Positions 5,186 to 58,142 of a DNA stretch of 59,361 nt are shown piece after piece (within the stretch, counting starts at the first letter, position 1; each line of letters opens with the position of its first letter). The translations under genes and the position numbers were made by a program. The DNA is from a virus. The stretch lies in UHGV virus genome UHGV-0259576; one strand, given 5' to 3'. The notes under the pieces are model-generated. The model did no database searches, was not told the DNA's origin, and worked only from the letters and a program-made list of their open reading frames with translations.

Positions 5186-7777
5186 TTACACCTCGTCATC
5201 GTCTTCATAATCGAACGGATTTTTCGCTTTTCCGATCTTGTTTTCGACGATCTGGTTATGGTCTTTTAGCGTCTTAACGGCCCAAACGGTGTTCAGTTTT
5301 CCGTTCTCTCTTTTGGCCGCTCTAACGTTTCTTCTGGTGAAGCACCGGCCGGTAACGCCATCGATTTTTAGCAGTCCACCCGGCTCAAAACCGAGGTCCA
5401 GGAGAAGGTTTTTTAGTCTGTTCGTCTTCGGCATTTCGACGTCCGGCATCTCCATAAAAGCGTCCTTTAAAGCGGGCGAGAAAATAATGTCTTTGCACAC
5501 GCCTAGTGTCTCGTTCTCCCTGATCATGGTGGCTAACATCTCGCCGACGCCATCGCTGGAAGCCTCCATCATTACCTGGAAAGCACGGGTGTCCTGCGGG
5601 GCATGGCCCTTATGGTTGAAGTCCGGGGAGATCTCCCATTCTAGGAACCATTTCTTAATGGCAGGACCGTGATTTTCGATAGCCCGATAAACGTTAGAGA
5701 AGAACTTCTCGCGTTCCTTAGCCGAACCGTAAACGCGGTCCATGTCCATGTGGTTTTCGGCCTGCGTGGAGACGACCAGGTAGCGGCGCTGGTTCTCGTC
5801 CAGCGGCAGCGCGTTGATGTGGTTGGTGAACATCAATTTCGAGCTGGTATTCACCACGTCACGCGGCTTGACGCCTTTCCCTTCCACCTGGAAGCGGTCG
5901 TTCGAGATAAATTCCTTCTGCTTATCGACGGCGCTGTACCGATCGCCTTTGTCATACACCTCTTCCACGATTTTCAGGATGTGGCCTTCCGCCCAGTCGG
6001 TGAAACGGCCATTCATGACGGAGTTAGAGACGTATCCGATGTTCTGCGCCCCCAGCATTTCGCGCATAAGCACCCCGATCGTGGATTTACCCGAACCGTG
6101 CGCCCCGCGGATGAGCAGCGAATAGTTGATGCGCTTTGTCGGGTGCTGGACGATGTGCGCCAGCCAGTCCATGACGTACGTCCGCTCTTTCGTGTCAGGG
6201 AACAGCACGATAAATAGGTCTTTGACGATAGAAATGGCTTTTTTGTCCAGTTTTGACAGCTTTTCTGCTGCTTTTGGGATGCTTTCAGGCGAAAACGTGT
6301 TCAAACGTAGCAATCCGGAGTCGTCATAGAAGAATTCCGGCCCTAAAAGACCTTCTTTTTGCGTCCATTTCGTCTCCTGCATACCGCCATGCATCTCCGG
6401 ATAGTACATAACGTCGTGAATAATCGGGATTTTTACGACGTCCGTGGCGAACTTATTCGGCGATAAACCGCCTTCCACGTCGCCGATATCACGCCCATGG
6501 GACGAATCAAACGCGCTTTTTGACAGTAAAATCCCGGTTTTACGGCTAACAAAGGCGTCCTGGGCCTGGGCAAAGACGTATTCTTTCAGCCAATTCGGGG
6601 TATCCGCACGGGAAAAGTCGAAACTGAGGTACTCTTTAACGGCTTTGTTAGTCAGCGCGCTTTCGTTCAGGCGTTTGTAGGCTTTCTTGGCCGCGTCAAT
6701 AGTCGGCTGGCGCTCAATGCCGAAAACCCGCAGCTTACGGAAGTCGTCTGCCCAGGCTTTCCAGTCCGCCATGGTGGTGACTTCGTTGAATGCCTCGGTG
6801 AACTCGGAAACCTGTTCCCGGGCTTCCTTCTCTTCGATTTCGTGGACCGTTTTGATGATGGTGCCGATTGTAACCAGCGTCTGGGCATCATGGGTAAAGC
6901 CTTTTTCCCACTTGTACTCGAATTCTGACTCGTCATAGTTATCCGCCTGCATGGACCAGTCGCGGGCGATCTCTTTCGCTTCATCCTGGTCACGGCATGA
7001 CACCTGCAGCGCGGCCATTACCCGGATCCAGTTTTCATAGTTCTCCGGGTCAGGGTATTTCATGACGATATCGCGCAGCTCGTCGTAGGTGCCGTCCCAC
7101 TTGGTGACGGTGGCCATTGCCGCCCAGTCGTCATCGTCCGCTTCGCCTTCCGCCGCCCGTCCGTTAATGGCCCGTGCGACTTTCATCCATCCCTGTTTTT
7201 CGGCATAGGCGTCGAACGCGTCGGCGATATCGCGGGCGATCTCCAGCGTGATTTCAGGCAGGTCCATGGCGGCCGCGCAGTTCACCGGGGTATCATCGGT
7301 GATCCAGGTGTATTCCTTGCGCGTATCCGGGTGGATACCGAAGGCGACGAACTGCTGGCCATCACCCAGGATTTCGACTGCATGGCGCTGTCCGAAGTCA
7401 TCTTCCCAGGTGGCGGACTTGACCTTTTTGAACGGCTCGTCGGTATGGCAAAGCACCAGTTTTTTCGGTTGACGGCCAACACGAACCGGGCCGGCGCCGA
7501 TTTTCTTTTCGACAACGGCCATCATGTGCTTAACCCCGTCTTTGTCGTAGACGTCAATGTCTACCGCGGGGGTGTGCTTGGTCAGGATGCCGATGCCAGA
7601 TGACGCGTATTTCTTCACGAAACCGTTAATCTGGCCACGGGTGTTCTCGATTTTCTGCCAGTCTTCGAACGCAGGCCGTTTTCCTGCTTTTGGCCTGGGC
7701 GAGTCAGGCGGAATGATGGGAACGACGGTGAAGCCGTTTTCCCACAGCGCTATTCCGTATTCGTTCCAGTAGTTCAT
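5186..7777 (-). CDS. bifunctional primase-polymerase (prim-pol N-domain) fused to D5-like SF3 helicase (863 aa); C-terminal acidic tail ...YEDDDEV
   Basis: N-terminal prim-pol signature (VVPIIP...KRPAFEDW...AVDIDVYD...GIHPDTRKEYTW). Walker A GAHGSGKST in the C-terminal half. No competing ORFs over its length. Confidence 0.85.
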   Translation of the reverse strand: MNYWNEYGIALWENGFTVVPIIPPDSPRPKAGKRPAFEDWQKIENTRGQINGFVKKYASSGIGILTKHTPAVDIDVYDKDGVKHMMAVVEKKIGAGPVRVGRQPKKLVLCHTDEPFKKVKSATWEDDFGQRHAVEILGDGQQFVAFGIHPDTRKEYTWITDDTPVNCAAAMDLPEITLEIARDIADAFDAYAEKQGWMKVARAINGRAAEGEADDDDWAAMATVTKWDGTYDELRDIVMKYPDPENYENWIRVMAALQVSCRDQDEAKEIARDWSMQADNYDESEFEYKWEKGFTHDAQTLVTIGTIIKTVHEIEEKEAREQVSEFTEAFNEVTTMADWKAWADDFRKLRVFGIERQPTIDAAKKAYKRLNESALTNKAVKEYLSFDFSRADTPNWLKEYVFAQAQDAFVSRKTGILLSKSAFDSSHGRDIGDVEGGLSPNKFATDVVKIPIIHDVMYYPEMHGGMQETKWTQKEGLLGPEFFYDDSGLLRLNTFSPESIPKAAEKLSKLDKKAISIVKDLFIVLFPDTKERTYVMDWLAHIVQHPTKRINYSLLIRGAHGSGKSTIGVLMREMLGAQNIGYVSNSVMNGRFTDWAEGHILKIVEEVYDKGDRYSAVDKQKEFISNDRFQVEGKGVKPRDVVNTSSKLMFTNHINALPLDENQRRYLVVSTQAENHMDMDRVYGSAKEREKFFSNVYRAIENHGPAIKKWFLEWEISPDFNHKGHAPQDTRAFQVMMEASSDGVGEMLATMIRENETLGVCKDIIFSPALKDAFMEMPDVEMPKTNRLKNLLLDLGFEPGGLLKIDGVTGRCFTRRNVRAAKRENGKLNTVWAVKTLKDHNQIVENKIGKAKNPFDYEDDDEV

Positions 7778-8055
7778 TCAAGAATTTCCCCTGTATCCGG
7801 GTCGATTTTTATCCAGTCCGGGTTAGTGAACCAATGTGGTCGGATGCCAGAAGTTTTAGCGGCCTCACAAATTTTGACGGCCATCTGCCCGGAAACGGTG
7901 TTGCGGATATTCCAGATCATAGTGTCGTAATTTACGCCGGCCGCCTTCGCCAGTTTGGTAAGGTTGCCGTCCGGATCTACCTCCAGGGCAGCGATACCAG
8001 CGAGGTAACGCGGTCTTAGGGAGTGGTCTTTAATAGCCCACGGTGGGAATTTCAT
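7774..8055 (-). CDS. Cro/YdaS-like HTH transcriptional regulator (93 aa)
   Basis: ATG with GAGGA SD. HTH-like segment LTKLAKAAGVNYDTMIWNIRN. First gene of the leftward unit from the divergent control region. The TTG-extended ORF (to 8226) was rejected. Confidence 0.5.
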   Translation of the reverse strand: MKFPPWAIKDHSLRPRYLAGIAALEVDPDGNLTKLAKAAGVNYDTMIWNIRNTVSGQMAVKICEAAKTSGIRPHWFTNPDWIKIDPDTGEILE

Positions 8056-8093
8056 AGATGATCCTCGCGTGTGTGTGCGTGTAAGTAAAACGG

Positions 8094-8122
8094 ATATTAG
8101 TCTCGCGCTGCTACAAAGTAAA
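8094..8122 (-). promoter_or_regulatory. putative leftward promoter for the cro-like/prim-pol unit
   Basis: Minus strand reads TTTACT-N17-TAATAT about 40 nt upstream of the 8055 start. Confidence 0.4.
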
Positions 8123-8285: not shown

Positions 8286-8678
8286 ATGTCAGGTATTTTT
8301 GAACAGCTGCTGGCCGAACAACAAAAAACCAACTCCCTGCTGGAACAGCTGCTGGCGAATGGCGGTGCTTCTTCCGCTGCAGCAGGTGAAGACGCTGGCG
8401 CCGGTAAGACCACCGCCAAAGGTAAAACCACCGCCAAAGGCAAATCCACTGCTGCGGCAGACAAGCCGAAACACACCAAAGACGAAGTAGTCGCTGCGGT
8501 CGTAGCGGTGAAAGACCGCTTTGGCGCACCGGAAGCCAAAAAGATCACCGCTAAATTCGGCCTGGCCAAAATCGCCGAAGCGAAAGAAGAACACTTCGAC
8601 GCGATTTTCGACCTGTGTGAAGCCAAACTGGCCGAACCGGAAGAGGATGAAGGCAACTCCGAAGAAGACGACGTTTAA
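8286..8678 (+). CDS. acidic low-complexity protein (130 aa) with in-frame 18-bp tandem repeat; C-terminus ...SEEDDV
   Basis: GAACGAGGA SD. Contains GKTTAKGKTTAKGKSTAA repeats. First gene of the rightward arm. Confidence 0.6.
   Translation: MSGIFEQLLAEQQKTNSLLEQLLANGGASSAAAGEDAGAGKTTAKGKTTAKGKSTAAADKPKHTKDEVVAAVVAVKDRFGAPEAKKITAKFGLAKIAEAKEEHFDAIFDLCEAKLAEPEEDEGNSEEDDV
8403..8456 (+). repeat. 18-bp tandem repeat (x2 perfect + 1 degenerate) inside CDS 8286..8678
   Basis: GGTAAGACCACCGCCAAA / GGTAAAACCACCGCCAAA / GGCAAATCCACTGCTGCG. Confidence 0.7.
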
Positions 8679-8732: not shown

Positions 8733-9083
8733 GTGAATAAGTTTGGAACGGCAATAGCTATGACTACCGGCGGCGGAGAGGAAGTGCCTATGTGGGCAGA
8801 GTTCCGCTTCGAAATTGGCGACCGTAACCCCTTATTCAGAGTAACTTCCCCCACACGTGGCCAGAACGGCCGGCGGATTAACGGGGAATTCCGTTTCGTC
8901 GTAACCCATGTTGGGTCCGGGTATCGTTTCACCGATTTCCGTTTCGACCTTTTAGCGAAAGCCCGTTACAACCTGAAACGGAACAACTACGGAAGGGCCG
9001 GCGCAATGGCGGTTAAAAAGACAATCGATGAAGTAGGCATTGAACGAGTTTTACGCGCCATAAAAGGCTACCCGGATGAGTAA
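8733..9083 (+). CDS. hypothetical protein (116 aa, GTG start)
   Basis: GTG preceded by AGAGAGG SD. Stop overlaps the next gene. Confidence 0.5.
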   Translation: MNKFGTAIAMTTGGGEEVPMWAEFRFEIGDRNPLFRVTSPTRGQNGRRINGEFRFVVTHVGSGYRFTDFRFDLLAKARYNLKRNNYGRAGAMAVKKTIDEVGIERVLRAIKGYPDE

Positions 9084-10425
9084 GTCTTTCCTGGTTCGTG
9101 TTATGCAGGAGTTTGCGGGCGGCGGGCATTCGATATTCGCGCCGTCTGCCTCTGCGATGTGGACGGCCTGCGGAGGAAGCCTGCTGGCCAACCTTTTCGA
9201 AGAGGACGAGTGCAGCTATGAAGCGGCGGAAGGAACCGTCGCCCACGGCATCGCCGAGCAGTGGCTGAAAACGGACATCCGACCGACGCATCTTATCGGA
9301 ACTACGCAGGTCATCGAGGAAAAAGGCGTTCGGCATGAGATTGTCGTCACCCGCTCTATGATCGACTATGTTCAGGATTACGTTGACTGGTGCCGGTTCG
9401 AAGAAGGAATGATGCTGACGGAAATCCGGGTCTGGTTCACCGACCTGATGCCGCCAGCCAACGCTGACGAGCTGGAGGAAGACCCGGATGCCGAAGTAGT
9501 GCCGTTTCTCCCGCAGGGCGGTACCGCGGATAACATCATCATTCGTGACCGGGTGCTGATTGTCACCGACCTGAAATACGGAACCGGCGTCCAGGTTTTC
9601 GCGGAAGGAAACCCCCAGGCGTTGCTCTATGCATACGGGGCGTACCGCGCATTTAGCGACGAGTACGAGTTTGACCGGGTCATCATCCGGATCGCACAGC
9701 CGAGGTTTGAGCATTTCGACGTTTGGGAAGTGACTGTCGACGAACTGCTGGACTTCGCCGAGTTCATCCGCGAGCGTGCAGCGGCCGCCTGGTCACTCAA
9801 AGCCAAACGCAAGGCGACTCTGAAAGGGTGCCGGTGGTGCCGGGCCGCGCATCATTGCGCAGCGGTGGCGTACATGATGGAATGCGCCGTCGGTGCCGAC
9901 CTCGAATTCCTGGACACTGAATTCGGAGATTATGAGATGTCGCAGTTACGCGCCGCCCTGGCGGAAGAATACAAAATGCGGAAGGCAAAGTTCGGCGATC
10001 TGTCCGTTGCCGAGATGGCCAAGATCCTGCCGTACCGCAAAGTGATTGAAAACTGGTTCGCCCGCCTGGACCTGGAGCTGGAGCGGGCGGCGAAAGACGG
10101 TAAGCCGGTTCCCGGGCATAAGCTGGTGGAATCACGCTCTAACCGTGCGCATACCAACGTCGAAAAGGCTAAGGAGCTGTATGATTTCCTCGGCCTTGAC
10201 GAAAAAGACTATATGAAAACTGAATTGCGCTCGCCGGCGCAGATGGAAGAAGTTCTTCGGGATAAACTTGGACTGTCACGCGCCGGCGCGCCAATGGTCA
10301 TCGAAAGCGTCGTATGGAAGCCGGAAGGCAAGCCGACCCTGGTACCACTGACTGATAAGCGGCCACCGCTGGATCAGAAATATTCCGGCGCCTATGACGA
10401 CGAAGATGACGACGATGACGTGTAA
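9076..10425 (+). CDS. PD-(D/E)XK nuclease of the DUF2800/Cas4-RecB-like family (449 aa); C-terminus ...DDDDDV
   Basis: Motifs IIIRDRVLIVTDLKYGTG (D..D.K) and QALLYAYGA (QxxxY). Four-Cys cluster ...CRWCRAAHHC... typical of Cas4-like Fe-S nucleases. Confidence 0.75.
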   Translation: MSKSFLVRVMQEFAGGGHSIFAPSASAMWTACGGSLLANLFEEDECSYEAAEGTVAHGIAEQWLKTDIRPTHLIGTTQVIEEKGVRHEIVVTRSMIDYVQDYVDWCRFEEGMMLTEIRVWFTDLMPPANADELEEDPDAEVVPFLPQGGTADNIIIRDRVLIVTDLKYGTGVQVFAEGNPQALLYAYGAYRAFSDEYEFDRVIIRIAQPRFEHFDVWEVTVDELLDFAEFIRERAAAAWSLKAKRKATLKGCRWCRAAHHCAAVAYMMECAVGADLEFLDTEFGDYEMSQLRAALAEEYKMRKAKFGDLSVAEMAKILPYRKVIENWFARLDLELERAAKDGKPVPGHKLVESRSNRAHTNVEKAKELYDFLGLDEKDYMKTELRSPAQMEEVLRDKLGLSRAGAPMVIESVVWKPEGKPTLVPLTDKRPPLDQKYSGAYDDEDDDDDV

Positions 10426-10471: not shown

Positions 10472-11092
10472 ATGGCTGAAAAATTAATTCCCATTAAGAA
10501 AGTTAAAAACGGCGTTCTGTATAAGAGCGGTCACATCAAAGTTTCCAACGTACGCGCTTCATATCCGCACCTGGGCGCACCATACGGCGGAGACGGCGAA
10601 GGCGAGCCTAAATACGGTATCGTCGGGCTTCTGCCGAAGAAAACGCACAAAGAGATTTACCTGCTGCTGAAAGAGCAGATCGAAGTCGCCAAAAAGAACC
10701 ACAAAACCGGTCCGCTTAAAGTTGCTCCGGCCATGTTGTTCCTGAAAGACGGCGATGCAGATTATCCGGATAAGCCGGATTACGCAGGCATGTGGGTTGT
10801 TTCTGCGCGCGAGAGCAAAAAGCCCGAGGTTTTTGACATTGATCGCGATGAGTTAACGAGTAAGGCTGAGATTGAGGAAGAGATTTACGGCGGTTGCTGG
10901 GTCTCCATGGTTATCCGTCCGTGGACCCAGGAGAACAAATACGGCAAACGCGTAAACGCTAACCTGATCTCTGTTTTAAAGCGTAAAGATGACGAACCGT
11001 TCGGCGAAGGTCGTGTTGATACCTCCGACGCGTGGGATGACGACGAAGACTGGGAAGACGACGACGCCGGCGATGAAGACGACGACGTTTAA
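10472..11092 (+). CDS. DUF2815-family phage ssDNA-binding-like protein (206 aa); C-terminus ...DEDDDV
   Basis: GGAG SD. Conserved DUF2815-like core (IYGGCWVSMVIRPWTQ...GKRVNANLISV). Long acidic tail. Position between DUF2800 nuclease and DNA polymerase is typical for this family. Confidence 0.65.
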   Translation: MAEKLIPIKKVKNGVLYKSGHIKVSNVRASYPHLGAPYGGDGEGEPKYGIVGLLPKKTHKEIYLLLKEQIEVAKKNHKTGPLKVAPAMLFLKDGDADYPDKPDYAGMWVVSARESKKPEVFDIDRDELTSKAEIEEEIYGGCWVSMVIRPWTQENKYGKRVNANLISVLKRKDDEPFGEGRVDTSDAWDDDEDWEDDDAGDEDDDV

Positions 11093-11158: not shown

Positions 11159-13201
11159 ATGGCCGATATTATTAACCTTGACTACGAAAGCCGGGCGCGC
11201 GTCGATTTGACGAAGCAAGGCCTGGACCGTTATTCACGCTGTCCGGATGCTAAAATCCTGATGGCAGCATATTCTGTTAACAATGGCAAGGTACAGCATG
11301 CCGACCTGTCCCGTGGCGCGAAGATGCCGGCAGAGCTGAAAGAAGCGCTGCTTGACCCTCACGTGGAGAAGTGGGCGTTCAATGCGCAATTCGAAAGGGT
11401 GATGACCCGCCGAGTTCTTGGCCTGAAAACCCCGTATAAATCCTGGCGATGCACGATGGTTCTGGCTTACATGCTGGGCTTTGCTGGCGATCTTCTGCAG
11501 GTAGGTAAGCAGATCGGGCTGAAAGAAGACCAGCTGAAAGACCCGGATGGCAAGCGGTTGATACGGATGTTCTGCATGCCTCAACGCGTCACCAAAAATA
11601 ACCCTTTTGAGTGGCGTAACGAACTTACGGATCCCGAAGAGTGGTGGGGCTTCTGCCGGTACAACATTCGCGACGTTGAAACTGAAATGCTGATTAAAAA
11701 TCGGCTTATCAAATACCCCATACTGCCGCAGGAATGGGACTTATACGCGCTTGACCAGCTTATCAATGACCGCGGCGTAATGATCGATACCGAATTCGCG
11801 CAGGCCGCACTGGACTTGGCTGACATGCGCAAACCGCAAATCATCGAAGAGATGAAAGACCTTACCGGCCTTCAAAACCCTAATTCCGTCTCACAATTGC
11901 TCCCGTGGTTACGCGAACGCGGATATCCGTTTGACGACCTTAGAAAAGACACGGTCGAGAAGGTTATCAGGGAGCAGGAAGAGAACGGCATTGATAGCGA
12001 AGCCATTCCCATTCTTAGCCTCCGGCTTAATAGCGCAAAAAACTCGGTTGCCAAATACCGGACTATGAAAAATGCGGCGGGTCACGATGGTAGATTCCGC
12101 TACTCTCTGCAGTTCGCCGGTGCCAGCCGGACGAACCGCTGGGCGGGACGAAAGATCCAGACGCAAAACCTGCCACGTACTCCAAAATTCCTGGAAGCGG
12201 TTGAAGACCTCACTATCGCGAACCGGTTCATCGCGAATAGGGAACTGGACAACCTGGCACTTTTCGTAGGTGAACCGATGGATGCGCTTGTCGGATGCAT
12301 CCGGTCTGCGTTTATCCCCTCGCCCGGTCACAAGTTTATCGTTGCCGACCTTGCTTCGATTGAGTCGGTCGTGATCGGGTGGCTGACAGACTGCAAATGG
12401 TTCATGGATACGCTGGCGATAAAACATGACCTGTATCGGTCGTTTGCGGCCCACTGGCTCGGATTGCCATACGAGGAGACAATCCCTCATCGTACTAAAG
12501 CGAAACCCGCCACCCTGGGTGCAGGTTATCGCCTTGGTGGCGGCCACCTTGGCGACGATGGGAAGAAAACCGGTCTGTGGGGATACGCGGAGAACATGGG
12601 CGTTCATATGACCCAGAAAGAAGCCGCGGATTCGGTGAAAGCGTTTCGTGAACTTTGCCCGGAAATCGTGGAGGCATGGAAACAGCTGGAAAACTGTGTC
12701 TTCCAGGTTATCCGTACGCATCGCCCGGTTAAGTGGAAGTGTCTGACTATCGAATACACCAAGCCATTCCTGACTATTAAGTTACCGTCAGGCCGCAAGA
12801 TGTACTACTTCCGCCCGCGCATCGTAGAACGCCAGATGACGGTTCAGAGCGGTGAACGTAAAGGCGAAAAGTACACCACTCTGAACTTCCAGTACGAAGG
12901 GAAAATCGAAAAAGCCAATGGTTCGTCCTGGGGCAAGGTGTTCAGCCACGGCGGCAAACTGGTGGAAAACATAGTTCAGGCCCTGGCGCGTGACGTCCTC
13001 GCCGAAGGGATGAAGAAGGCACACCGCATGGGCTTTAAGATCGTCATGCATATCCACGATGAGATCGTTACCGAAGTCCCGGAAGACAGCCCGTTAACCC
13101 TTGCTGACCTGATCGGCTGCATGGCGGCTAAACTGCCATGGGCGCCCGGATTACCGCTTGGCGCCGCCGGATGGGAAGGATATTTCTACAGGAAAGACTG
13201 A
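11159..13201 (+). CDS. family-A DNA polymerase with N-terminal 3'-5' exonuclease domain (680 aa)
   Basis: Exo I LDYE. Pol motif A (IVADLASIES), motif B (RTKAKPATLGAGY), motif C (MHIHDEIV). AAGAGGA SD. Confidence 0.9.
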   Translation: MADIINLDYESRARVDLTKQGLDRYSRCPDAKILMAAYSVNNGKVQHADLSRGAKMPAELKEALLDPHVEKWAFNAQFERVMTRRVLGLKTPYKSWRCTMVLAYMLGFAGDLLQVGKQIGLKEDQLKDPDGKRLIRMFCMPQRVTKNNPFEWRNELTDPEEWWGFCRYNIRDVETEMLIKNRLIKYPILPQEWDLYALDQLINDRGVMIDTEFAQAALDLADMRKPQIIEEMKDLTGLQNPNSVSQLLPWLRERGYPFDDLRKDTVEKVIREQEENGIDSEAIPILSLRLNSAKNSVAKYRTMKNAAGHDGRFRYSLQFAGASRTNRWAGRKIQTQNLPRTPKFLEAVEDLTIANRFIANRELDNLALFVGEPMDALVGCIRSAFIPSPGHKFIVADLASIESVVIGWLTDCKWFMDTLAIKHDLYRSFAAHWLGLPYEETIPHRTKAKPATLGAGYRLGGGHLGDDGKKTGLWGYAENMGVHMTQKEAADSVKAFRELCPEIVEAWKQLENCVFQVIRTHRPVKWKCLTIEYTKPFLTIKLPSGRKMYYFRPRIVERQMTVQSGERKGEKYTTLNFQYEGKIEKANGSSWGKVFSHGGKLVENIVQALARDVLAEGMKKAHRMGFKIVMHIHDEIVTEVPEDSPLTLADLIGCMAAKLPWAPGLPLGAAGWEGYFYRKD

Positions 13202-13497
13202 TGGCCGAATGGGGAACCCCTGTCGTCAGGGAATCGAAGGTCGAAGGCCGCTGCTGCGAGTATGCGCAGGGCCGCGGCTGGTGGGTGTCGAAGTTCACGG
13301 CACCTGGGAAAAAGGCCGTTCCGGATCGCGTTTTTATCCGGAATGGCGTTGTGCTTTTTGTGGAATTCAAGCGCCCTGGCGAAGAGCCGACGCTGCAGCA
13401 GCGCAACCGCCATCGGCAGATGAAAGCCAAAGGGGCTAACGTGACATGGGTGGACAATTTTGAAGACTTTAAGAACTACCTTATCGCCTTTGAGTAA
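13201..13497 (+). CDS. VRR-NUC domain nuclease (98 aa)
   Basis: ATG overlaps the polymerase stop (ATGA). The ~100-aa sequence matches the VRR-NUC pattern (E..VEG.C..YA...GWWVSKFTAPGKK..PDRVFI.NG.VLFVEFKRPGE.PT..Q...H.QM.A.GA). Confidence 0.75.
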   Translation: MAEWGTPVVRESKVEGRCCEYAQGRGWWVSKFTAPGKKAVPDRVFIRNGVVLFVEFKRPGEEPTLQQRNRHRQMKAKGANVTWVDNFEDFKNYLIAFE

Positions 13498-15031
13498 GGC
13501 AATTGCGTATTGCCAGCGCAACGTGATTCGCCAGCGGTCGGACATGCACGGCTACCAGGACGAGGGCGTCGGCTTCATCAAAGACACGCCGTTCTGCGGC
13601 CTGTTCGTCGACCTTGGGCTGGGAAAGACGGTGATGGCCGCTACCGCCGCGCTGGACCGTATCGTCGACGGGAAGGTTAACAAAGTGCTGATCGTCGGGC
13701 CAAAGCGCGTTGCGAAAGTGGGCTGGCCGAGCGAATTCGAGGAATGGGGGCATCTCTGCTTCTGGAAGATATCGGTCATCGACGGTGATGCAGCGCAACG
13801 CGAGCGCGCCGCACGCGAGGACTGCCATTTCTACACGGTGAGCGTGGATAACCTCGCGTGGCTGTGTACGCTGTTCAAAAAGAAATGGCCATACGACATG
13901 GTTATCCTGGACGAGTCCAGCATGTTCAAGTCGCATACCTCGCAACGGTTCAAGCTGCTGCGACGCTGCCGGCCGTACATAAACTACCTGGTGGAGCTGA
14001 CTGCCACCCCTGCCGCCGAAGGGTACATGGGCATTTTCGCGCAGACGTACCTACTGGACGAAGGCGAGCGCTTTGGCACCACGATCACCGGGTATCAGGA
14101 AAACTATTTCATCCAAAACAAGTACAACTTCAAGTTCAAGTTACGCAATGGCGCCGAGGAAGAAATCATCCGTAAGATCTCCGACATCGTCATGGTGATG
14201 AAGGCGGAAGATTATCTTGACCTTAAAAAGCCGACCCCGGTTCCGATACCGGTCGAACTTGACCCGCATTCCGCCGACCTGTACCGGCAGATGGAAGAAG
14301 AATCCCTCGTCGAAATAATGCCCGACGAATTTGACGAATATCTGGATGACCCATTGACGATTGAAGCCGAGCAGGCCGCGTCCCTCCAGGCCAAATTGCT
14401 GCAGCTGGCGTCCGGATTCATCTACGACACCAAAATCGTCGGGATCACCAGTGACGATAAAGTCGTGAAGCAGAAAGACGCTTATCGGATTCACGACCTG
14501 AAATTCGATGCGCTGGAAGAATTACTGGACACCACCCTGGAGGGGAAAAACGTCTTTCTGGCCTATCACTTTAAGCCGACTCTGGCCCGCCTGCAGGAGC
14601 GGTTCGGGAAAAGGGGTCTGGTCGTCATGGATGATGACGGCAAGGCGATTAAGAAGTGGAACGCCGGCAAGATAAAGCTGCTGGCGGCGCACCCCCAGTC
14701 CGCCGGCCATGGGCTTAACCTGCAGCACGGTGGTCACATCATCGTATACGTCGATAACCCGTGGTCGCTTGAACGGTTTCTGCAATTCAATGGCCGCCTG
14801 GCGCGTCAGGGCCAGAAGCACCCGGTGACGGTCTATCAGATGAAAGCGATGATCCGCCATCCGAAAACCAAGGAGCTGATCGACACTGTCGACGGCACCG
14901 TCATCGAAGCGCTAAATACTAAGAGTGATGTGCAAGATGCTTTTTTTGATTTGCTAAACCGCATCAAAGGCCGCATAACTAAGCGCATGAAGGCTAAGAA
15001 AACGGAGCTATGGGATGACGAAGACGACTAA
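13460..15031 (+). CDS. SNF2-family DEAD/H helicase (523 aa by ORF track; true start uncertain)
   Basis: Walker A LGLGKT. DExx box ILDESSMFK. Helicase C-domain motifs present. Start is either TTG 13460 (GGGTGGA SD, overlaps VRR-NUC) or ATG 13544. C-terminus is acidic ...WDDEDD. Confidence 0.8.
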   Translation: MKTLRTTLSPLSKAIAYCQRNVIRQRSDMHGYQDEGVGFIKDTPFCGLFVDLGLGKTVMAATAALDRIVDGKVNKVLIVGPKRVAKVGWPSEFEEWGHLCFWKISVIDGDAAQRERAAREDCHFYTVSVDNLAWLCTLFKKKWPYDMVILDESSMFKSHTSQRFKLLRRCRPYINYLVELTATPAAEGYMGIFAQTYLLDEGERFGTTITGYQENYFIQNKYNFKFKLRNGAEEEIIRKISDIVMVMKAEDYLDLKKPTPVPIPVELDPHSADLYRQMEEESLVEIMPDEFDEYLDDPLTIEAEQAASLQAKLLQLASGFIYDTKIVGITSDDKVVKQKDAYRIHDLKFDALEELLDTTLEGKNVFLAYHFKPTLARLQERFGKRGLVVMDDDGKAIKKWNAGKIKLLAAHPQSAGHGLNLQHGGHIIVYVDNPWSLERFLQFNGRLARQGQKHPVTVYQMKAMIRHPKTKELIDTVDGTVIEALNTKSDVQDAFFDLLNRIKGRITKRMKAKKTELWDDEDD

Positions 15032-48134: not shown

Positions 48135-49244
48135 TTAGAGGTCGATCTCGTCAGGGTCATCGGCACGGCCATACATCTCTTCGAACAGGATCATAGCTGC
48201 GGCGTACACCAGCGTCCCGCGAAGTTCGTTGATCCGGGCCTGTTTAGTCGGCAGCGACCGGGCCTCAATGGTTTTCTTGATAACCTGCTGCGCCAGGCCG
48301 GCGTCGCTGTCCAGCATCTGCGCCATGGTCAGGATCGGCTGCTCGATGAACGGCAGGTCATTGGCATGACGCTCACGGCCTTTACCGTACGCCGCCTGTT
48401 CCAGCGCGCCGAGGAAGGTGCGCAGCAACGGCAGATAGTCATCCCGGTCTTTCTTGTTTTTGAAACGGAACATTACCGACGGGAAGCCGGACTCATCGGC
48501 TTCCATCGTCAATTCGTATTGCTGCTGTTTAGCCGCCTTAACGCCGTACGGCGCGGCCATAGCGGGCGACGTACCGACTTTACGACCCTCCCACGCGAAG
48601 GCCGCCGGTTGGTTATTCGCTTTTATCATCTTCGCGATGTTTTCCATGGCATCCTGGGCCGTACCTCCGGTGATCCTGACTTCGGTTACGGCATCCCAGC
48701 AGCGCTTAACGAGAAAATGGACGGTGGAGATAATCGTATCTGCCGGGGCATCCGGGTCGAGTTTTAATTCTTTCGCGACCGCCTCAATCGTTTTTTCCTG
48801 TTCGACGGCCTGCGCCTTCACCGCACCTACCATGGCCAGCATTTCGTCCCAGCTGCGGCCGGTGACGCCCATCGCTTTCGCCAGCTGGTCACGCATTTGC
48901 GAATCAATGCTGACCAGTTCGTCAGTGGACGGGTTACGCAGCGAAAGGAGTTTATGCCCGTTGAGATGCGCGAACATGAGATAGTTCATCGCGTCGATCA
49001 GCTTACCTTTAGCCAGCGAATCGCGAATGCAGGTGCGGCATTCATGCTCGGTCAGTTCTTTCCACGGTTCGGCTGTCGCCCAGTCTTTACGTTTTTTAGC
49101 GCCGTGGTAAAGGCGCGATAACATTTCATCGAAGACGACGTTTACGGTACGAAGGAATTCCAGGGAAAGGTAGCCCCCAATATTGCCTTCAACACTTTCG
49201 ACGGTGAGGCGCACGGCAGGCACAGTGGTATTAAGATTTGACAT
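48135..49244 (-). CDS. hypothetical protein (369 aa)
   Basis: CGGAGA SD. First gene after conserved promoter copy C. Confidence 0.6.
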   Translation of the reverse strand: MSNLNTTVPAVRLTVESVEGNIGGYLSLEFLRTVNVVFDEMLSRLYHGAKKRKDWATAEPWKELTEHECRTCIRDSLAKGKLIDAMNYLMFAHLNGHKLLSLRNPSTDELVSIDSQMRDQLAKAMGVTGRSWDEMLAMVGAVKAQAVEQEKTIEAVAKELKLDPDAPADTIISTVHFLVKRCWDAVTEVRITGGTAQDAMENIAKMIKANNQPAAFAWEGRKVGTSPAMAAPYGVKAAKQQQYELTMEADESGFPSVMFRFKNKKDRDDYLPLLRTFLGALEQAAYGKGRERHANDLPFIEQPILTMAQMLDSDAGLAQQVIKKTIEARSLPTKQARINELRGTLVYAAAMILFEEMYGRADDPDEIDL

Positions 49245-49279: not shown

Positions 49280-49308
49280 ATACTAGCTGCACACGTTCTG
49301 TGTGTCAA
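49280..49308 (-). promoter_or_regulatory. conserved leftward promoter/operator copy C (TTGACA-N17-TAGTAT; dyad CACACAGAACGTGTG)
   Basis: Same ~32-bp element. Overlaps the stop of the C5-MTase gene. Confidence 0.6.
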
Positions 49309-50489
49309 ACGTTTTCCAGAAAATCTACAGTTCCCACCATAAAGTTTCGGATGAACTGGGCGGCGACTTGCGGGACGATGGCGTTTCCGTATCCGCGCAG
49401 TCGCACCACTCGGGCGGGTACCCCATTAGCCAGCGGGAATGTGCCGGATTCAACGGGCCGGAAATTTCCATCCCTGCATAGCAGCCAGTCAGCATTTGAC
49501 CATGCGCCGTGATCCTGATCGGGAAGTCCGGAACAGGCGTACACTTCTCCATACCCTTCCTGTAACTCCCCGATAGCTGCCCCCTCGATGCCGGCGAGTC
49601 CGGTACCGTCAGCGGTGTCGGGTAGCTGGCGAGACGAACAGCGCCGCCCAGGGTCGTCGACCGATCCGGATGGCCCGCTGCGCCCGCCTCCCCGCGTACC
49701 TGATTGTTGTCGATCGTCGTCACCGTTGGCCATCCCGCCATCCCCGCGATGTCCTGCAGGCGGATATGCTTCTTCGTCCCGTCCTCCCGGAACCATCCCG
49801 CCCGCGCGTAGTCCGGACATGGGCTGCGGTCGTTGCAGGTGTTCGGCGTTGGGTAGGTCGCCAGCTGCGCCGCCACGTCCAGCCGGTCGACGGATAGTTT
49901 GCCATTCCTTATCCGCCCACCCGCGTAGCCGCCTTTCCAGTCCGTCGCTGACGAGGTCGGCCAGGTCGATAGCGCCAAAGAAAAGGCGATCTCTTTTGTG
50001 CGGGGCGCCGACGCTGCACGCTGGCAATACTGCCGATGCGCAGGCGTAGCCTTCGTCTTCCAGCTCAACGAATAGAGCATCGAGCCACAGTTCTTTAATT
50101 GCTGCGCTAACCTGTTCGCCAAAAATAGCTGGAGGTCGCAGCTCTGCGATGAGGTCGAGAAAGGCCGGAGCCAGGTGACGGGAGTCGTCCCGCCCGCCTC
50201 GTTTTCCAGCCACACTAAAAGGCTGGCACGGCGGACTTCCCGTACACACTGGCGCATCTGCCGGCCATCCGGCGAGTTTAAGGGCCAGCGGCCAGCCCCC
50301 GATCCCGGCGAAGAAATGGTGTTGGGTGAAGCCTTTGAGGTCTTCCGGTGCGACTTCTGTGATTGATCGTTCATCGACAATTCCATCTGGCAGGTGGCCG
50401 CGCCTGATTAGTTCACGAAGCCACGCTGCGGTTTTTGGGTCCCACTCGTTAAAATAGTGGAACGGTTTAGAGCCGTTTATGTATGCCAT
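49305..50489 (-). pseudogene. DNA (cytosine-5)-methyltransferase gene read across two frames (two compensating frameshifts: pseudogene, sequencing error, or recoding)
   Basis: Frame A (49305..50489) carries motifs [26 protein letters not shown] and [13 protein letters not shown], then G/R-rich junk, and ends with motif [14 protein letters not shown]. The overlapping frame B ORF (49325..50386) carries the TRD-like WPT(P/S)...D and YPTP repeats and motif IX-like [10 protein letters not shown]. Shifts map near 49977-49985 (AAAGAAAAG tract) and 49388-49405. Confidence 0.6.
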
Positions 50490-50634
50490 TCTGCGCCTTT
50501 TCCGCGCGTTGCTTGAACACGCATTCGACATGGATGGTTCGCCATGACCCGGCATAGCGTTCGTAATGGCCGGCGCCGGCCGGCACATGCTTTTTGCAGT
50601 AGTAGCAGACGCCCGCGTATTTATTTCTGGCCAT
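50467..50634 (-). CDS. small Cys/His-containing protein (55 aa)
   Basis: ATG with GAGGG SD. CYYCKK...H...ECV. Only the last 55 codons of the 160-aa ORF-track entry look real. Confidence 0.35.
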   Translation of the reverse strand: MARNKYAGVCYYCKKHVPAGAGHYERYAGSWRTIHVECVFKQRAEKAQNGIHKRL

Positions 50635-51255: not shown

Positions 51256-51969
51256 TCATACCTCGTCCCACTGGGCGATCCACTTCTCGCGGATGTCCTG
51301 CATGATGTTGGCCATGGGCAGTCCGATGTCCATGAGCGCTTCCCGGGAGATGTACTCCGGGGCATGTTTTTCTTCGTCTTCCGGGTCGAAGATGACTATC
51401 GCGGCGCCGAAGCCCGCGGACGTGGCGCCAGCGGCATCCTTCTTCGCTTTGAACCATACCGGCGGTTCGAAACCGATGCGCCCTTTGATGAATATGGTGC
51501 GCGTGGCGATGGTATCGGGCCACCATGTTTCAGCCGTTGCCGCTTTGATCACCCAGACCGTACCCGCGCCTTTCTTCCGTTCCTCTTCCGCCTTGGCCAT
51601 GATGTTGACCATGCCGGTTAGCGGCACTTCCACAGCACGGTTACGGCTGTATGGCGGGTTGCCGAAACCCCATACCCGCCGAACGTGGTCGGCGACATCG
51701 TACACTTCCGCCTCGGCCTCCAGTTCCGCCTGTATCCTTTTCAGCCGGCCCGCCCAGTCCTGGCGCAGCGCGTTGTCCTCGGCAGTGTAATAGCGCGGGC
51801 ATTTGGCGTTCTGGCCATCGGTGAACAGGTCCAGCACCAGCGGGCCGAACAGCTTGTCCAGCGCAAAGAACAGCCAGTCCGGTGTCCGCCACTGGTCGCC
51901 TATCTCTTTCAGGTCATGCGCTTCCCGGGCTTTCAGCGCGATGAGGTTGTCAACGTATTCAGAACTCAA
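51256..51969 (-). CDS. phage-type DNA N6-adenine methyltransferase (Dam family) (237 aa)
   Basis: DQWRTPDWLF near the N-terminus, LDLFTDGQNA, DWAGR, catalytic motif IV WGFGNPPYS, GRIGFEP. This is the phage Dam (pfam05869-like) pattern. Confidence 0.85.
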   Translation of the reverse strand: MSSEYVDNLIALKAREAHDLKEIGDQWRTPDWLFFALDKLFGPLVLDLFTDGQNAKCPRYYTAEDNALRQDWAGRLKRIQAELEAEAEVYDVADHVRRVWGFGNPPYSRNRAVEVPLTGMVNIMAKAEEERKKGAGTVWVIKAATAETWWPDTIATRTIFIKGRIGFEPPVWFKAKKDAAGATSAGFGAAIVIFDPEDEEKHAPEYISREALMDIGLPMANIMQDIREKWIAQWDEV

Positions 51970-53164: not shown

Positions 53165-53561
53165 CGGTGTCCTCCATCATCCACGATGGCCATACGCCAT
53201 CGCGGATCATCTGGCGCTGGGCCTTCCAGTCAGCCTGCGCGAGTTCTTTAACCCGGGTCCGGATGACAGCGTCAGGCATAAACGCCGTCATTACTTTCGT
53301 CAGGAAAACTTTGTTGTAGGGGTCTTCCACGCGGCGGTTTAACGCCTGCGCGCAGGACTGGATCGCCGCCTTGTCATTGCCGTGTTCTTTCATGCACAGC
53401 ATGAGCGTAACGATCATGTCTATCGCCTCGGCGATATCCCGGCACGCTTTCTTTTCTGGCCCATGGACCTCAATGGAAATGCTGGTCGCCGGGAATAACA
53501 GGTGGTCTTTGTACGGGCGCAGCCAGTCCGCTTTTGCCCGGTCTTCTGCGCTGGTGGTCAT
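53154..53561 (-). CDS. hypothetical helical protein (135 aa)
   Basis: ATG with GGGAAGAGGA SD. The longer ORF-track start was rejected. Confidence 0.5.
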   Translation of the reverse strand: MTTSAEDRAKADWLRPYKDHLLFPATSISIEVHGPEKKACRDIAEAIDMIVTLMLCMKEHGNDKAAIQSCAQALNRRVEDPYNKVFLTKVMTAFMPDAVIRTRVKELAQADWKAQRQMIRDGVWPSWMMEDTDGN

Positions 53562-54325
53562 ACTTCGATGTCCTCTTCCCGGATAAGCTGCAGGGCGTTG
53601 CCGTTCACCGCCCACGGTTGCCACACGTCCACCACCAGCGCCGCACGGAATGACCGGTTGAAGCAGTTCTCGATCATCGCCCAGTTATCGTCCGGACGGT
53701 CTGACGCGATGCCATTGCGCTCCCAGTGCCACTGGCGTGGCGCCTGGGCCAGCTCGCGGAGGGGCGGGCGTGGGTGTGAGTAGGGGTTGCACAGGCCGGA
53801 ACGCAGCAGGCCGCGCTGGAGCCATGAGCGCTGCCACCAGAGGTCACAGCGGGTCGACCCGACGGCGTATTCCTCTTCCAGCATGACGCACATGATCAGC
53901 GCGCACACAGTATCGCGTGGCGCCGGCGCGCCGATGAGGTCGAAATCCTCCAGCCTCTTCGCCAGGCGGTCGGCGGACCCTTCGTCCTGCCCGTTGCCGT
54001 CGGTACGGTCATGCAGAATTACATCGAGGATGATGGCCGGAAAGACGACCTGTTTGCCGTTGCGGGTGAAGCGGGGGTCAGGCTCATTGAAGAGGGCGTG
54101 ATACAGCCGCCCGAACCACTCCGACAGGTCAGGCACGAAGTCGGCGATATCCGGCCAGCTGCGTTCCTCTGTGTTGTGGATGCGCACGGACGTCTCTTCC
54201 TCTATCGGGTCATACTCGACGCGGACGATGCAGCGCGGGCCGTGCGGGAGGGGGAAAATGTAGATGGTCTGTTTGCCGATTCGATTCTGGTCAAAGCGGC
54301 CAAACGACATTAAGTGCTTCTTCAT
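53558..54325 (-). CDS. hypothetical protein (255 aa); C-terminus ...IREEDIEV
   Basis: ATG with AAAAAGGAA SD directly downstream of conserved promoter copy B. The ORF-track TTG start was rejected. Confidence 0.55.
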   Translation of the reverse strand: MKKHLMSFGRFDQNRIGKQTIYIFPLPHGPRCIVRVEYDPIEEETSVRIHNTEERSWPDIADFVPDLSEWFGRLYHALFNEPDPRFTRNGKQVVFPAIILDVILHDRTDGNGQDEGSADRLAKRLEDFDLIGAPAPRDTVCALIMCVMLEEEYAVGSTRCDLWWQRSWLQRGLLRSGLCNPYSHPRPPLRELAQAPRQWHWERNGIASDRPDDNWAMIENCFNRSFRAALVVDVWQPWAVNGNALQLIREEDIEV

Positions 54326-54354
54326 GGGATGTTCCTTTTTGTGGACTCCCAAGA

Positions 54355-54983: not shown

Positions 54984-54984
54984 G

Positions 54985-56076
54985 TCACACCTCGTCGTCG
55001 TCTTCCAGCTGCGCGTCGACCTCAACCGTGATGTCCATCTTATCGCGGAAGACGTCAATGACGTCCTGCAGCGACAGCACCGTCTGGAACAGGTTGGCCA
55101 TGTAGGTCAGGAACGTACCGCTGTCATTGTTGTAGCGCTCCAGGGTGGCCTCGTAATTGGCGTCAACGTCAGCCTCGCCGATATGGATCCCGGAGATGAT
55201 CGCCTTGTCGGTCAGGCGGAAGAACACGTTGCCCACGCCCGGGCGCATCTCGCCTTCGTCGATTCGCATGTTCAGCGCCCGAACCGTGTAATGCCGCGCC
55301 AGGTAGTCGAGGACCACTTCGTCCTTGTGGATGTCAATGTCCTTGAACTTCACGTCATCGCCATCGTCGTGCTTGATGTGGATGAAGTCGTCGCCGGTGA
55401 CACCCTCGATGTCGCCGCGTACGACCTTCTCCATTGACTGACGCAGCACGAAGTCATTGATCAGCAGGTGTTCCACTGGCCAGGTACCGAACGCGGCACG
55501 CAGCAGGGAGTTAATCTCTTCGGCGGTCTTGGCGCTGGTGGTGAACACGTAGACGTACGGGACGGCGATGATCACGTTGTAGCGGGTTGGGCGGATAGGC
55601 GCGGTTTTCAGCATTTCGGCTTCAACATCGTCTTTCAGCTGCGCCCAGTCTTTCCGGGTCGGCTCCCAGCCTTCAATCTCTTTCTCGCGCCAGGTGTCCA
55701 TACGCTTCGTCACTTCGTTGCGCACGCTGACGCCGGGCAGCACGCGTTCACGCTTTTCGGCCTGCAGCACGATCGCGTTGGTACCGGGGATGCCCATGGC
55801 GAACTTGCCGCCCACGTAGTCCGCGTACGGCGCAAAGCCAATCGTCTTATAGCCGATCGGGTCTTTCACTTCGTGCTTCGCCAGCAGGTCGCTCACACGG
55901 CCGGCGGCGAATTCATGGACCGACATTTCATCCAGATTCGGCGTGTTCAGCAGCGTGCGGTGGAAACTTTTTACCGACTTCTCGCCAGCGTTTGCGGCGC
56001 CAAAGAGCGCGCCGAGATGCAGAATGATGACTTTCTCAAAGCCTTTAACTTTCATTGGGGTTATCTCCGTTTGCAA
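54985..56076 (-). CDS. rdgC: RdgC-like recombination-associated protein (363 aa); C-terminus ...LEDDDEV
   Basis: By-eye similarity to E. coli RdgC over its length (e.g. ...IVLQAEKRERVLPGVSVRNEV vs ...[21 protein letters not shown]). Size fits. Confidence 0.55.
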   Translation of the reverse strand: MQTEITPMKVKGFEKVIILHLGALFGAANAGEKSVKSFHRTLLNTPNLDEMSVHEFAAGRVSDLLAKHEVKDPIGYKTIGFAPYADYVGGKFAMGIPGTNAIVLQAEKRERVLPGVSVRNEVTKRMDTWREKEIEGWEPTRKDWAQLKDDVEAEMLKTAPIRPTRYNVIIAVPYVYVFTTSAKTAEEINSLLRAAFGTWPVEHLLINDFVLRQSMEKVVRGDIEGVTGDDFIHIKHDDGDDVKFKDIDIHKDEVVLDYLARHYTVRALNMRIDEGEMRPGVGNVFFRLTDKAIISGIHIGEADVDANYEATLERYNNDSGTFLTYMANLFQTVLSLQDVIDVFRDKMDITVEVDAQLEDDDEV

Positions 56077-56933: not shown

Positions 56934-57278
56934 TTAGTGTTTTTCGCCAGCAATGTCAGCCAGTACGGCTGCGACTTCCGGCGTGGGCATGTGGGTATTG
57001 GCCCAGTACAGCAGCCCGATGATGTAGTGGATCATCTGGCCGACCTCTGCGGCGCCGCGCGCTTTTCCGCCTTTGGCTTTCGCATAATCGCCTTCGCTGA
57101 ACAGCACTTTGCCGGTACCGCGGTAGCCAACAATGGCCGAACCGGTATGCGTGACATAGATGGCCACCGCATATTTGTCTTCCAGGGAGCGGAACGCCGG
57201 GCCAGCGTCGAGTCGTTTGCGCGGCGCCGCAACGCGGTTCACCGCCAGCGCGACATTACTCGGTGTCGGGTTTTCCAT
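56934..57278 (-). CDS. hypothetical protein (114 aa)
   Basis: ORF. GAGAGG-type SD upstream. Confidence 0.5.
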   Translation of the reverse strand: MENPTPSNVALAVNRVAAPRKRLDAGPAFRSLEDKYAVAIYVTHTGSAIVGYRGTGKVLFSEGDYAKAKGGKARGAAEVGQMIHYIIGLLYWANTHMPTPEVAAVLADIAGEKH

Positions 57279-57705
57279 TGAGAGGCTCTCCGTTCAGGGT
57301 GTAGATGACGACGCCCGGCACGCTGACGTCGATCGACAGCGATGGCACAAAGCCGGACATAACGTTCTGCGGGGTGATGGTGGCGCGTTTCAGGCCGTTC
57401 TCGTACATGATGTTCGCGATGCCTGCCATGACGGACTTCTCCATGAGGTTCAGGGTCGTCTCTTCGCGCATCTCCAGTAGCAGTTCCAGTTCGGCGGCGC
57501 GGTCAGGGATATCGAACGCCCGCTGCAGCGCAGCAATCAGCACAATGGCGTCATCACGGGTAAGGCGGCTGATAGCGTCAATATCGCCATTCGGGCTTTC
57601 GACCCTGATGGACCCGCGCTGTTCATCGTAGCCATACTGACGGGAAACCGTGGCTTCACGGCCATCGCTAAGGTCAAGTTCTTCGAATGCTTCTGCTGTG
57701 GTCAT
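57256..57705 (-). CDS. hypothetical protein (149 aa)
   Basis: ORF. GGAGACACC-ATG. Confidence 0.5.
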   Translation of the reverse strand: MTTAEAFEELDLSDGREATVSRQYGYDEQRGSIRVESPNGDIDAISRLTRDDAIVLIAALQRAFDIPDRAAELELLLEMREETTLNLMEKSVMAGIANIMYENGLKRATITPQNVMSGFVPSLSIDVSVPGVVIYTLNGEPLNGKPDTE

Positions 57706-57764
57706 GTGGTGTCTCCGGGGGAAAAGGGTGGTACGGCAAAAAAGAGGTGCCGCGTCCTACAGGA

Positions 57765-58142
57765 TTAAACTTCGTCGTCTTCCTGGGTGCCGGCGCCATC
57801 ATCAACGCGCTTGATCGCCACCTGGATAAACGCACGGCCCGACGGGTACATGACCAGCGCCGTTTCCAGTGAGAACTGACTATTGCAGGCCCGTTTGGCG
57901 TTACGCAGGGAAGACGACACGCCGTTACGCATTTTGTAGCGCAGCGCCGTGGCTTCGGTCTGCAGGTCCGCCAGCGCCTTGCTGCTGTCCAGCTCCTGCG
58001 CATAAACGTAGACCTCGCCAGGCTTGAGGCCGATCAGGTTGCCAGTGATACTGTTAGCCCGGATACCTGACGGCAGTTCCACGTCCGTCTCCATGGTCAT
58101 CATGGCCGGCGTCAGGTCATCCAGGATAATCGCGTCGTTCAT
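57765..58142 (-). CDS. hypothetical protein (125 aa); C-terminus ...QEDDEV
   Basis: First gene after conserved promoter copy A. GGAGAATACCG-ATG. Confidence 0.55.
   Translation of the reverse strand: MNDAIILDDLTPAMMTMETDVELPSGIRANSITGNLIGLKPGEVYVYAQELDSSKALADLQTEATALRYKMRNGVSSSLRNAKRACNSQFSLETALVMYPSGRAFIQVAIKRVDDGAGTQEDDEV

Follow-up and report, generated by a model that had tools for sequence, protein, structure and literature searches.

A shared acidic C-terminal tail on proteins of a Klebsiella Chi-like phage and its relatives

[quoted passage not shown] The question is raised by UHGV-0259576, a 59.4-kb stretch of viral DNA that we analysed at its full length and call the window. It is essentially the complete genome of a Klebsiella siphovirus (Chi-like, family Casjensviridae), and its nucleotide identity is 94-96% to Klebsiella phages (e.g. 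OU509537, vB_Kpn_RAH2 and KPN N98/N137) and ~75% to Salmonella Chi-like phages. An earlier note on this DNA had listed nine open reading frames (ORFs) whose products end in a run of Asp and Glu closed by Val, and had proposed that these ends are a common docking peptide. We found that all nine ORFs are present and that all nine endings are exactly as that note gave them (Table 1). The SNF2-family helicase ends in ..LWDDEDD and lacks the Val, also as noted there.

The tail in the window and in its relatives

We found that the motif is present far above chance. A C-terminus was scored as tailed if its last residue was one of V, I, L, M, F, W or Y, if at least three Asp or Glu residues lay at positions -6 to -2, and if Asp or Glu stood at -2 or -3. 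By this rule 9 of 77 window ORFs (non-overlapping, chosen greedily) were tailed, compared to 0.43 expected from the internal 6-mers of the same proteins (binomial P = 5.8e-10). Among 303 shadow ORFs a single one qualified. Val was the last residue of 8 of the 9 qualifying tails, compared to 13 of 100 internal matches. The same rule found 12 tails in the Serratia phage Smarc1, 10 in the Providencia phage Stilesk, and 6, 6 and 5 in other relatives. Unrelated control phages had one (Vibrio MAR), one (Edwardsiella EPP-1) or none (Pseudomonas Itty13). In phage T7, gp2.5 (..EADEDGDF) qualifies by the strict rule; gp4 ends in ..DWSNDTDF.

We compared the C-termini of orthologues from six whole genomes (Salmonella FSL SP-030, Providencia Stilesk, Serratia Smarc1, Proteus Jing313, Aeromonas BUCT551 and Burkholderia AH2) and from 77 IMG/VR loci with the DNA polymerase at their center, counting distinct sequences in each family. 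The tail was present in all 19 sequences of a 130-amino-acid protein, in all 13 of DUF7443 (5 ending in V, 3 in I and 5 in L, each fitting its clade) and in all 6 of the RdgC-like protein. It was also found in 48 of 59 SSBs, 26 of 33 TerS proteins, 32 of 70 DUF2800 exonucleases, 28 of 52 primases and 10 of 72 SNF2 helicases. None of the 75 family A DNA polymerases (PolA) and none of the 60 TerL proteins had it, nor did any capsid, protease, decoration or adaptor protein. The tail is confined to non-virion proteins, and these are mostly proteins that handle DNA. Two of 50 portal proteins, from two distant loci, do carry one: ..NQEDDEL (L039, 18854-20524) and ..FDEDDDL (L056, 17925-19637).

The tail is kept across deep divergence, with conservation among orthologues extending down to 25-50% identity. 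An aliphatic end was found in 119 of 120 clusters of SSB homologues (L in 73, I in 33, V in 10 and M in 3), and an aromatic end in none. Nearly all full-length members of 73 clusters of TerS homologues were tailed. Their last residue followed identity to the window protein: acid plus V at ~70% and above, acid plus I at ~57-63%, and acid plus L or I below ~55%. A search of a 1.8-billion-protein library with the RdgC-like protein reached representatives at 23-35% identity, and 125 of the best 150 had an acidic run with an aliphatic end, mostly -DDEL. A distant representative with a tail is encoded on a 57.6-kb contig that has the same primase, DUF7609 and exoribonuclease genes; thus, this tailed RdgC belongs to the same supergroup. 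The exoribonuclease of that contig ends in ..YEDDEL and another of its proteins in ..SPNDEL. A single distant RdgC query against viral contigs gave no match. By these comparisons, the network of tails is an ancient trait of a large supergroup of phages (Chi/Nazgul-like), most of it uncultured. That is, the tail is not peculiar to the window phage, and L is its widespread last residue.

The tail is not a general trait of RdgC, as the RdgC of Vibrio MAR is untailed (..ETGEDEGK). The RdgC genes of Edwardsiella EPP-1 and Pseudomonas Itty13 were not flagged for a tail in scans of the two genomes.

The anatomy of the tail, as modelled, is that of a short linear docking motif, with a conserved end, a variable linker and predicted disorder. 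Low-complexity linkers lie upstream of the tails and vary between orthologues, and the last three to five residues are fixed. In an AlphaFold2 (AF2) model of the SSB, built from a 96-sequence alignment, the confidence score (pLDDT) was >90 in the core and fell from 64 to 49 along the tail. The tail of the 130-amino-acid protein had a pLDDT <50.

Concerted change of the last residue

We found that the last residue changes together in unrelated proteins. On the polymerase tree L is the widespread state, and V occurs in one monophyletic clade (Chi, Klebsiella, Redjac and Enc34 types). In every locus of this clade all or almost all tails end in V (each of two loci has one I besides), with 3-6 V tails in the loci flanking PolA and up to 10 in whole genomes. 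The sister groups have either I only (Aeromonas type) or a mixture of F, I, L and M (Proteus type); acid plus I ends six proteins in Aeromonas BUCT551 and six in locus L032. Many other clades have L only. The same pattern was seen within single families. Distinct orthologues from the V clade end in acid plus V in 16 of 16 DUF2800 exonucleases and in 12 of 14 primases; elsewhere DUF2800 ends in I or L by clade, and the primase in L, I or F.

Pairs of tailed proteins from different families but from one genome had the same last residue in 150 of 187 cases (80%), compared to ~30% expected. This set comprised 49 dereplicated genomes. Shuffling gave 56.5 +/- 6.2 concordant pairs and none of 10000 shuffles reached 150, in a permutation that ignores phylogeny. 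The same families are tailed in all clades, so the residue was switched in situ, and in at least six unrelated genes.

In one contig four proteins share the end -GL: the primase ends in ..GCGL, DUF2800 in ..DDGL, the SSB in ..NGGL and SNF2 in ..AAGL. A shared -G-L or -G-G-L end marks the lineages of two IMG/VR contigs, L041 and L047, whose PolA is 44-48% identical (..GCGL, ..DDGL, ..NGGL, ..AAGL, ..DDGGL and ..DHGL). The acidic run is weaker in these ends, a hint that charge counts for less than the last residue.

The last residue tracks the phage lineage and not the host. Among phages of Serratia marcescens, Smarc5 is of the V type (..DDDEV, ..EDDEV, ..DDDEV, ..ADDEV, ..EDDEV) and Smarc1 has eleven L tails. 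Among Providencia phages, Stilesk has V and locus L033 (a contig of 59,837 bp, the length of Kokobel1) has M or I. This pattern favors a reader encoded by the phage, or else a permissive reader combined with lineage drift, and it argues against a conserved host pocket.

Positions other than the last are also constrained. Among 57 tails of the V class, D stands at -3 in 49 and E at -2 in 46, and an aromatic residue often lies 4-8 positions before the end (..AWDDEDDDEV, ..EDWEDEV, ..AQWDEV). The SNF2 helicases of all V-clade phages (including L001, L003 and loci L013-L035) end in [LVI]WDDE[DE](D), and those of the I and L clades have the canonical tail (..AEEDDEI, ..AFDDDDL, ..ADEDDLL). The SNF2 end may be a second type of tail that has no aliphatic cap, with the anchor shifted to Trp. 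Similar ends (..EVWDD, ..GVWDDD) were seen on DUF2800 of the Proteus type.

The most distant PolA loci (L083, L084 and L086; PolA 37-39% identical) have acidic ends with Phe in the SSB (..DDFLG, ..DFLD, ..DDFLS) and, in part, in DUF2800 (..EADFMED, ..VEDFS). A small protein encoded just upstream of DUF2800 ends there in ..KKAEEL, ..DAEVL or ..KKAEVL. These loci may have a different, smaller version of the network.

Proposed docking on a common reader, and other explanations

The reading that we favor, and consider somewhat probable, is that the tail is a C-terminal short linear motif that docks on one common reader encoded by the phage. Each tail consists of a flexible linker, often one aromatic residue, a run of Asp and Glu, and a single aliphatic end with its free carboxylate. 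All tails would dock in one basic, hydrophobic pocket of the common partner. Docking would gather the primase-helicase, the exonuclease, the SSB, SNF2, RdgC, the methylases, TerS and the small proteins on replicating phage DNA. The docking peptide proposed in the earlier note gains from the conservation of the tail, from the concerted change of its last residue and from the untailed polymerase, TerL and virion proteins. The single hub goes a step beyond this, and we infer it from the concerted evolution.

By analogy with T7 gp5, the most likely candidate for the reader is the family A DNA polymerase. We rank it first because the SSB is a homologue of gp2.5 and because the polymerase is the only core replisome protein that is never tailed. 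The beta-sheet groove of the gp2.5-like SSB, itself a client, is a second candidate. In the crystal of ORF6 of phage Enc34, the C-terminus occupies the groove of a neighboring molecule's beta-sheet and buries 842 A2 (PMC5686142). Enc34 ORF6 is an orthologue of the window SSB from the same phage family, and its tail, deduced from the cloning primer, is ..WDEDEV (PMC5686142). That paper (Cernooka et al. 2017) treats the tail as an ordinary feature of an SSB and does not report its recurrence on the primase, exonuclease and terminase. We found no prior description of such a recurrence in the open-access literature, in which the Enc34 SSB paper was the sole match.

The closest known system is that of T7, in which the acidic tails of gp2.5 and gp4, both with a Phe end, bind gp5 DNA polymerase/thioredoxin. 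The T7 polymerase has a basic patch to which the tail of gp2.5 is anchored (PMC12339929). As in T7, an acidic run closed by one hydrophobic residue and predicted to be disordered ends both the SSB and the primase-helicase, and the polymerase is untailed. Suppressors of a T7 gp2.5 without its last Phe map to gene 5. The earlier note had drawn this analogy. It stands for the SSB, which is of the gp2.5 family, and T7 has tails only on gp2.5 and gp4; it fails for the anchor, which is aliphatic (V, I, L or M, with Phe in none of 120 clusters of SSB homologues) and not the aromatic residue of T7 and of bacterial SSBs. The note was right that the network is wider than that of T7 and reaches packaging. 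There are ten to twelve carriers in the window, TerS among them, and twelve or more in Smarc1, compared to two in T7, and they also include proteins of recombination and DNA modification. The polymerase, although of family A, has no detectable sequence similarity to gp5.

The tip of bacterial SSB (..DDDIPF) is similar in its acidic run and in its hydrophobic end with a free carboxylate, and in bacteria it organizes many enzymes of DNA metabolism. However, the topology is inverted: one hook and about twenty pockets there, many hooks and presumably one pocket here. No Pro-Phe or IPF-like tip occurs in the window or in the 120 clusters of SSB homologues, and the SSB fold is of the gp2.5/Enc34 type, not the homotetramer type. 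By its defining features (anchor, topology and carriers) the tail system falls outside both the T7-tail and the bacterial-SSB-tip classes. It is best read as a version of the two-member T7 gp2.5/gp4 system that has been enlarged and has an aliphatic anchor. Some eukaryotic C-terminal motifs (EEVD-TPR of Hsp70/Hsp90, EEY/F-CAP-Gly of tubulin/EB1, and class III PDZ ligands) are likewise short and acidic with a hydrophobic end and a free carboxylate, and several clients share one class of reader domain. This likeness is an analogy only, with no evolutionary link, and Pfam scans of 21 window proteins found no TPR, CAP-Gly or PDZ domain.

Several results weigh against docking on one reader. In some lineages the last residue is mixed: a single genome of the Proteus type has F, I, L and M, two Stilesk proteins end in I, and the Dam methylase ends in I in both SP-030 and Stilesk. 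A reader would therefore have to tolerate several aliphatic residues, which weakens the argument from specificity. The switches on the PolA tree may number only three to five independent events, and the permutation of pairs is not corrected for phylogeny. A PDB sequence search with PolA gave weak matches only (Pol theta at 1e-6) and no detectable similarity to T7 gp5. The AF2 model of the SSB gave no sign of its tail docking on its own core; the tail was predicted to be disordered. Finally, it is not obvious why TerS, a head-module protein or, rarely, a portal would dock on the polymerase or the SSB.

There might be no common hub. Each acidic tail could be a DNA mimic that acts within its own protein or oligomer, covering the surface that binds DNA and tuning DNA affinity or specificity, as described for T7 gp2.5, T4 gp32 and Enc34 ORF6, and DNA binding by all carriers would then be the sole reason for the likeness of the tails. 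Where a carrier has an assigned function, it does mostly act on DNA or nucleic acid, the Enc34 SSB without its tail bound double-stranded DNA in addition to single-stranded DNA (PMC5686142), and its tail rests on a neighboring SSB molecule in the crystal (PMC5686142). However, other DNA-binding proteins of these phages are never tailed, namely PolA, TerL and the product of the gene directly downstream of the primase gene, which related records annotate as a transcriptional regulator, and AF2 gave no sign of a tail docking on its own protein. A mimic also needs no fixed last residue, yet the SSBs have a near-uniform aliphatic end and the V class has its D at -3 and E at -2. Mimicry in cis explains the acidity. 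It does not explain a fixed, lineage-specific last residue (V, I, L or -GL) that unrelated proteins of a genome share and change jointly, and we consider it unlikely as the whole account. Alternatively, the reader could belong to the host, with the tails imitating the bacterial SSB C-terminus and plugging into, or blocking, SSB-interacting enzymes or another host hub. The E. coli SSB tip is DFDDDIPF, and its aromatic residue, acidic run, hydrophobic end and free carboxylate resemble those of the tails; in the most distant PolA loci the SSB ends in ..DDFLS, ..DDFLG or ..DDIP. Yet the IPF tip is essential for bacterial SSB to bind its host partners, and none of the 120 clusters of SSB homologues has a Phe end or an IPF-like tip. 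Also, one host species or genus, Serratia marcescens (V and L) or Providencia (V and M/I), has phages of different codes. A host reader seems improbable to us.

The tail could instead govern stability, either as a signal for a protease or adaptor or as a guard against C-terminal degradation, so timing the clearance or the keeping of early proteins. C-terminal sequences strongly affect proteolysis in bacteria, and the tails are on early and middle proteins and absent from virion proteins. On the other hand, TerS and DUF7443 are part of the late module for packaging and the head, and the homologous T7 tails are docking elements and not degrons. No bacterial degron is known to have such a form, and ClpXP recognition is usually blocked when acidic residues lie close to the C-terminus. 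A turnover tag is thus very unlikely. The last alternative is that the motif arises at the nucleotide level, either from base composition or because a terminal GAG-GTN is the ribosome-binding site (RBS) of a coupled downstream gene; we give this almost no weight. It does fit three window genes, 22443-22712 (GACGAGGTCTGAtATG), 51256-51969 (GAGGTATGAgATG) and 54985-56076 (GACGAGGTGTGAcATG), in which the last tail codons (GAC GAG GTN) are the RBS of the next gene (sites at window positions 22700-22716, 51253-51268 and 54982-54997), which starts 1-4 nt past the stop. The other window tails are encoded with GAC-GTT, GAA-GTT or GAC-GTG, and are followed by terminator-like hairpins or by a gap of at least 45 nt to the next gene. 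In six genomes, an RBS-like 4-mer was found within the last four codons of 7 of 48 tails, and for only 2 of these 7 was the downstream gene within 16 nt; this rejects RBS overlap as the general cause, and it stays a secondary use of tail codons in a few genes. Codons of L and I tails (CTN, TTA, ATH) cannot form such a site, and only one shadow ORF in 303 is tailed. Synonymous codons for the last residue vary freely (GTG, GTT, GTA and GTC; CTT, CTG, CTA and TTA), indicating that selection acts on the peptide.

Docking on one phage reader has a more specific form, which we put forward tentatively as a possibility. The reader (polymerase or SSB) would recognize a private, lineage-specific address code (-[DE]n-V, -I, -L or -GL). 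Anchor and pocket would co-evolve, co-infecting relatives would have no cross-talk, and genes would join by gaining a tail. If true, this private code would tie the proteins of replication, recombination, DNA methylation and packaging into one machine.

Acidic C-terminal tails are textbook features of SSBs and of the T7 replisome, in which two proteins have them. The tail here marks about one protein in seven of the phage proteome, across replication, recombination, DNA modification and packaging; it is kept throughout a very large supergroup and evolves in concert. It also gives a simple rule by which Casjensviridae and related genomes can be annotated. If one reader exists, a short synthetic peptide could fish out the organizing center of phage DNA metabolism, and the 130-amino-acid protein, DUF7443, DUF7609 and phrog_6886 could be assigned to the machine by their tails alone. 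The system would then also be a natural example of how a motif and its pocket co-evolve, and the tail a portable tag for recruiting cargo to the phage replisome.

Carriers of the tail and neighboring genes

Table 1. Tailed proteins of the window, with the polymerase and proteins with variant or doubtful ends
Protein	Position	Strand	C-terminus
Prim-Pol + PriCT_2 + DUF5906 primase-helicase	5186..7777	-	tail ..NPFDYEDDDEV
130-aa conserved protein, phrog_7721, function unassigned	8286..8678	+	tail ..NSEEDDV
DUF2800 PD-(D/E)XK-type exonuclease	9076..10425	+	tail ..GAYDDEDDDDDV
gp2.5-like / Enc34-type ssDNA-binding protein (SSB)	10472..11092	+	tail ..DWEDDDAGDEDDDV
Family A DNA polymerase (PolA)	11159..13201	+	no tail, ..GWEGYFYRKD
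SNF2-family helicase	13460..15031	+	variant tail ..ELWDDEDD (aromatic and acidic run, no aliphatic last residue)
DUF1441 small terminase subunit (TerS)	15015..15584	+	tail ..RFAEEEDDEV
DUF7443 protein, gene right after major capsid gene	22443..22712	+	tail ..GKAGAADDEV
369-aa protein, phrog_8209, function unassigned	48135..49244	-	ends ..DDPDEIDL
C5 cytosine DNA methyltransferase	49305..50588	-	ends ..VDFLENV (weak, doubtful tail)
Dam-type N6-adenine methyltransferase	51256..51969	-	short tail ..IAQWDEV
phrog_6886 protein, function unassigned	53558..54352	-	tail ..LIREEDIEV (weakest of the nine)
RdgC-like recombination-associated protein	54985..56076	-	tail ..AQLEDDDEV
DUF7609 protein, function unassigned	57765..58142	-	tail ..GAGTQEDDEV

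Pfam and PHROGs upheld the functional labels given to the carriers, including Prim-Pol, DUF2800, SSB, SNF2, DUF1441 TerS, DUF7443, Dam, RdgC and DUF7609. The SSB matched PF10991 (Enc34_ssDNA-bd) at 7.5e-31 and PHROG 112 ('Gp2.5-like') at 2.3e-53. The list of nine was right as far as it went but overlooked three ends: that of the Dam methylase, a tenth carrier; that of the C5-methylase, a weak eleventh; and the L end of the 369-amino-acid protein. For the phrog_6886 protein, given as 53558-54325, the ending was right; the mechanical ORF starts at a TTG at 54352. The only orthologue of this protein recovered, from Jing313, ends in ..TEDATL.

The 130-amino-acid protein consists of an N-terminal helix, a disordered T/K/G-rich linker, a small helical domain and the tail. 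Its homologue clusters end in V in 119 of 120 cases and in EEDDV in 110 of 120. The linker is a variable T/K/G-rich repeat (..GKTTAKGKTTAKGKS..), and the EEDDV end is invariant. A Foldseek comparison of its AF2 model to the PDB gave no significant match. Some database homologues bear the name 'RecT protein', for which we found no support. DUF7443 starts with a small domain, which is followed by a K/A/G-rich linker and the tail. DUF7609 orthologues in SP-030 and Stilesk have ..DDDEV ends. A terminator-like hairpin lies directly 3' of the stop codon of the primase-helicase gene.

Orthologues of the Dam methylase end in ..MWDEI (SP-030), ..LWDEI (Stilesk), ..SFDDL (Jing313) and ..EEEEI (BUCT551). 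A cytosine methylase of Smarc1, a putative orthologue of the C5-methylase, ends in ..LAADEL. A PAPS-reductase-like protein of SP-030 (L001, 42178-43077) ends in ..EDDEV. The tails, or short forms of them, on Dam, the C5-methylase and the PAPS-reductase-like protein hint at a coupling of DNA modification to replication. The 369-amino-acid protein has the sole L-capped acidic end in this V-type genome. Its orthologues in SP-030, Stilesk and AH2 have no such end, so its L is probably due to chance or to a recent change.

Scans of the whole window for tRNAs and Rfam families found none. Between the polymerase and SNF2 genes, ORF 13138-13497 (+ strand) would encode a small basic protein of 119 amino acids, in the place where relatives have the VRR-NUC nuclease. 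ORF 13158-13439, which lies in a different frame, had no Pfam match. The deposited genomes of close relatives start at scattered points within window positions 1-5200, and the window thus appears permuted relative to them.

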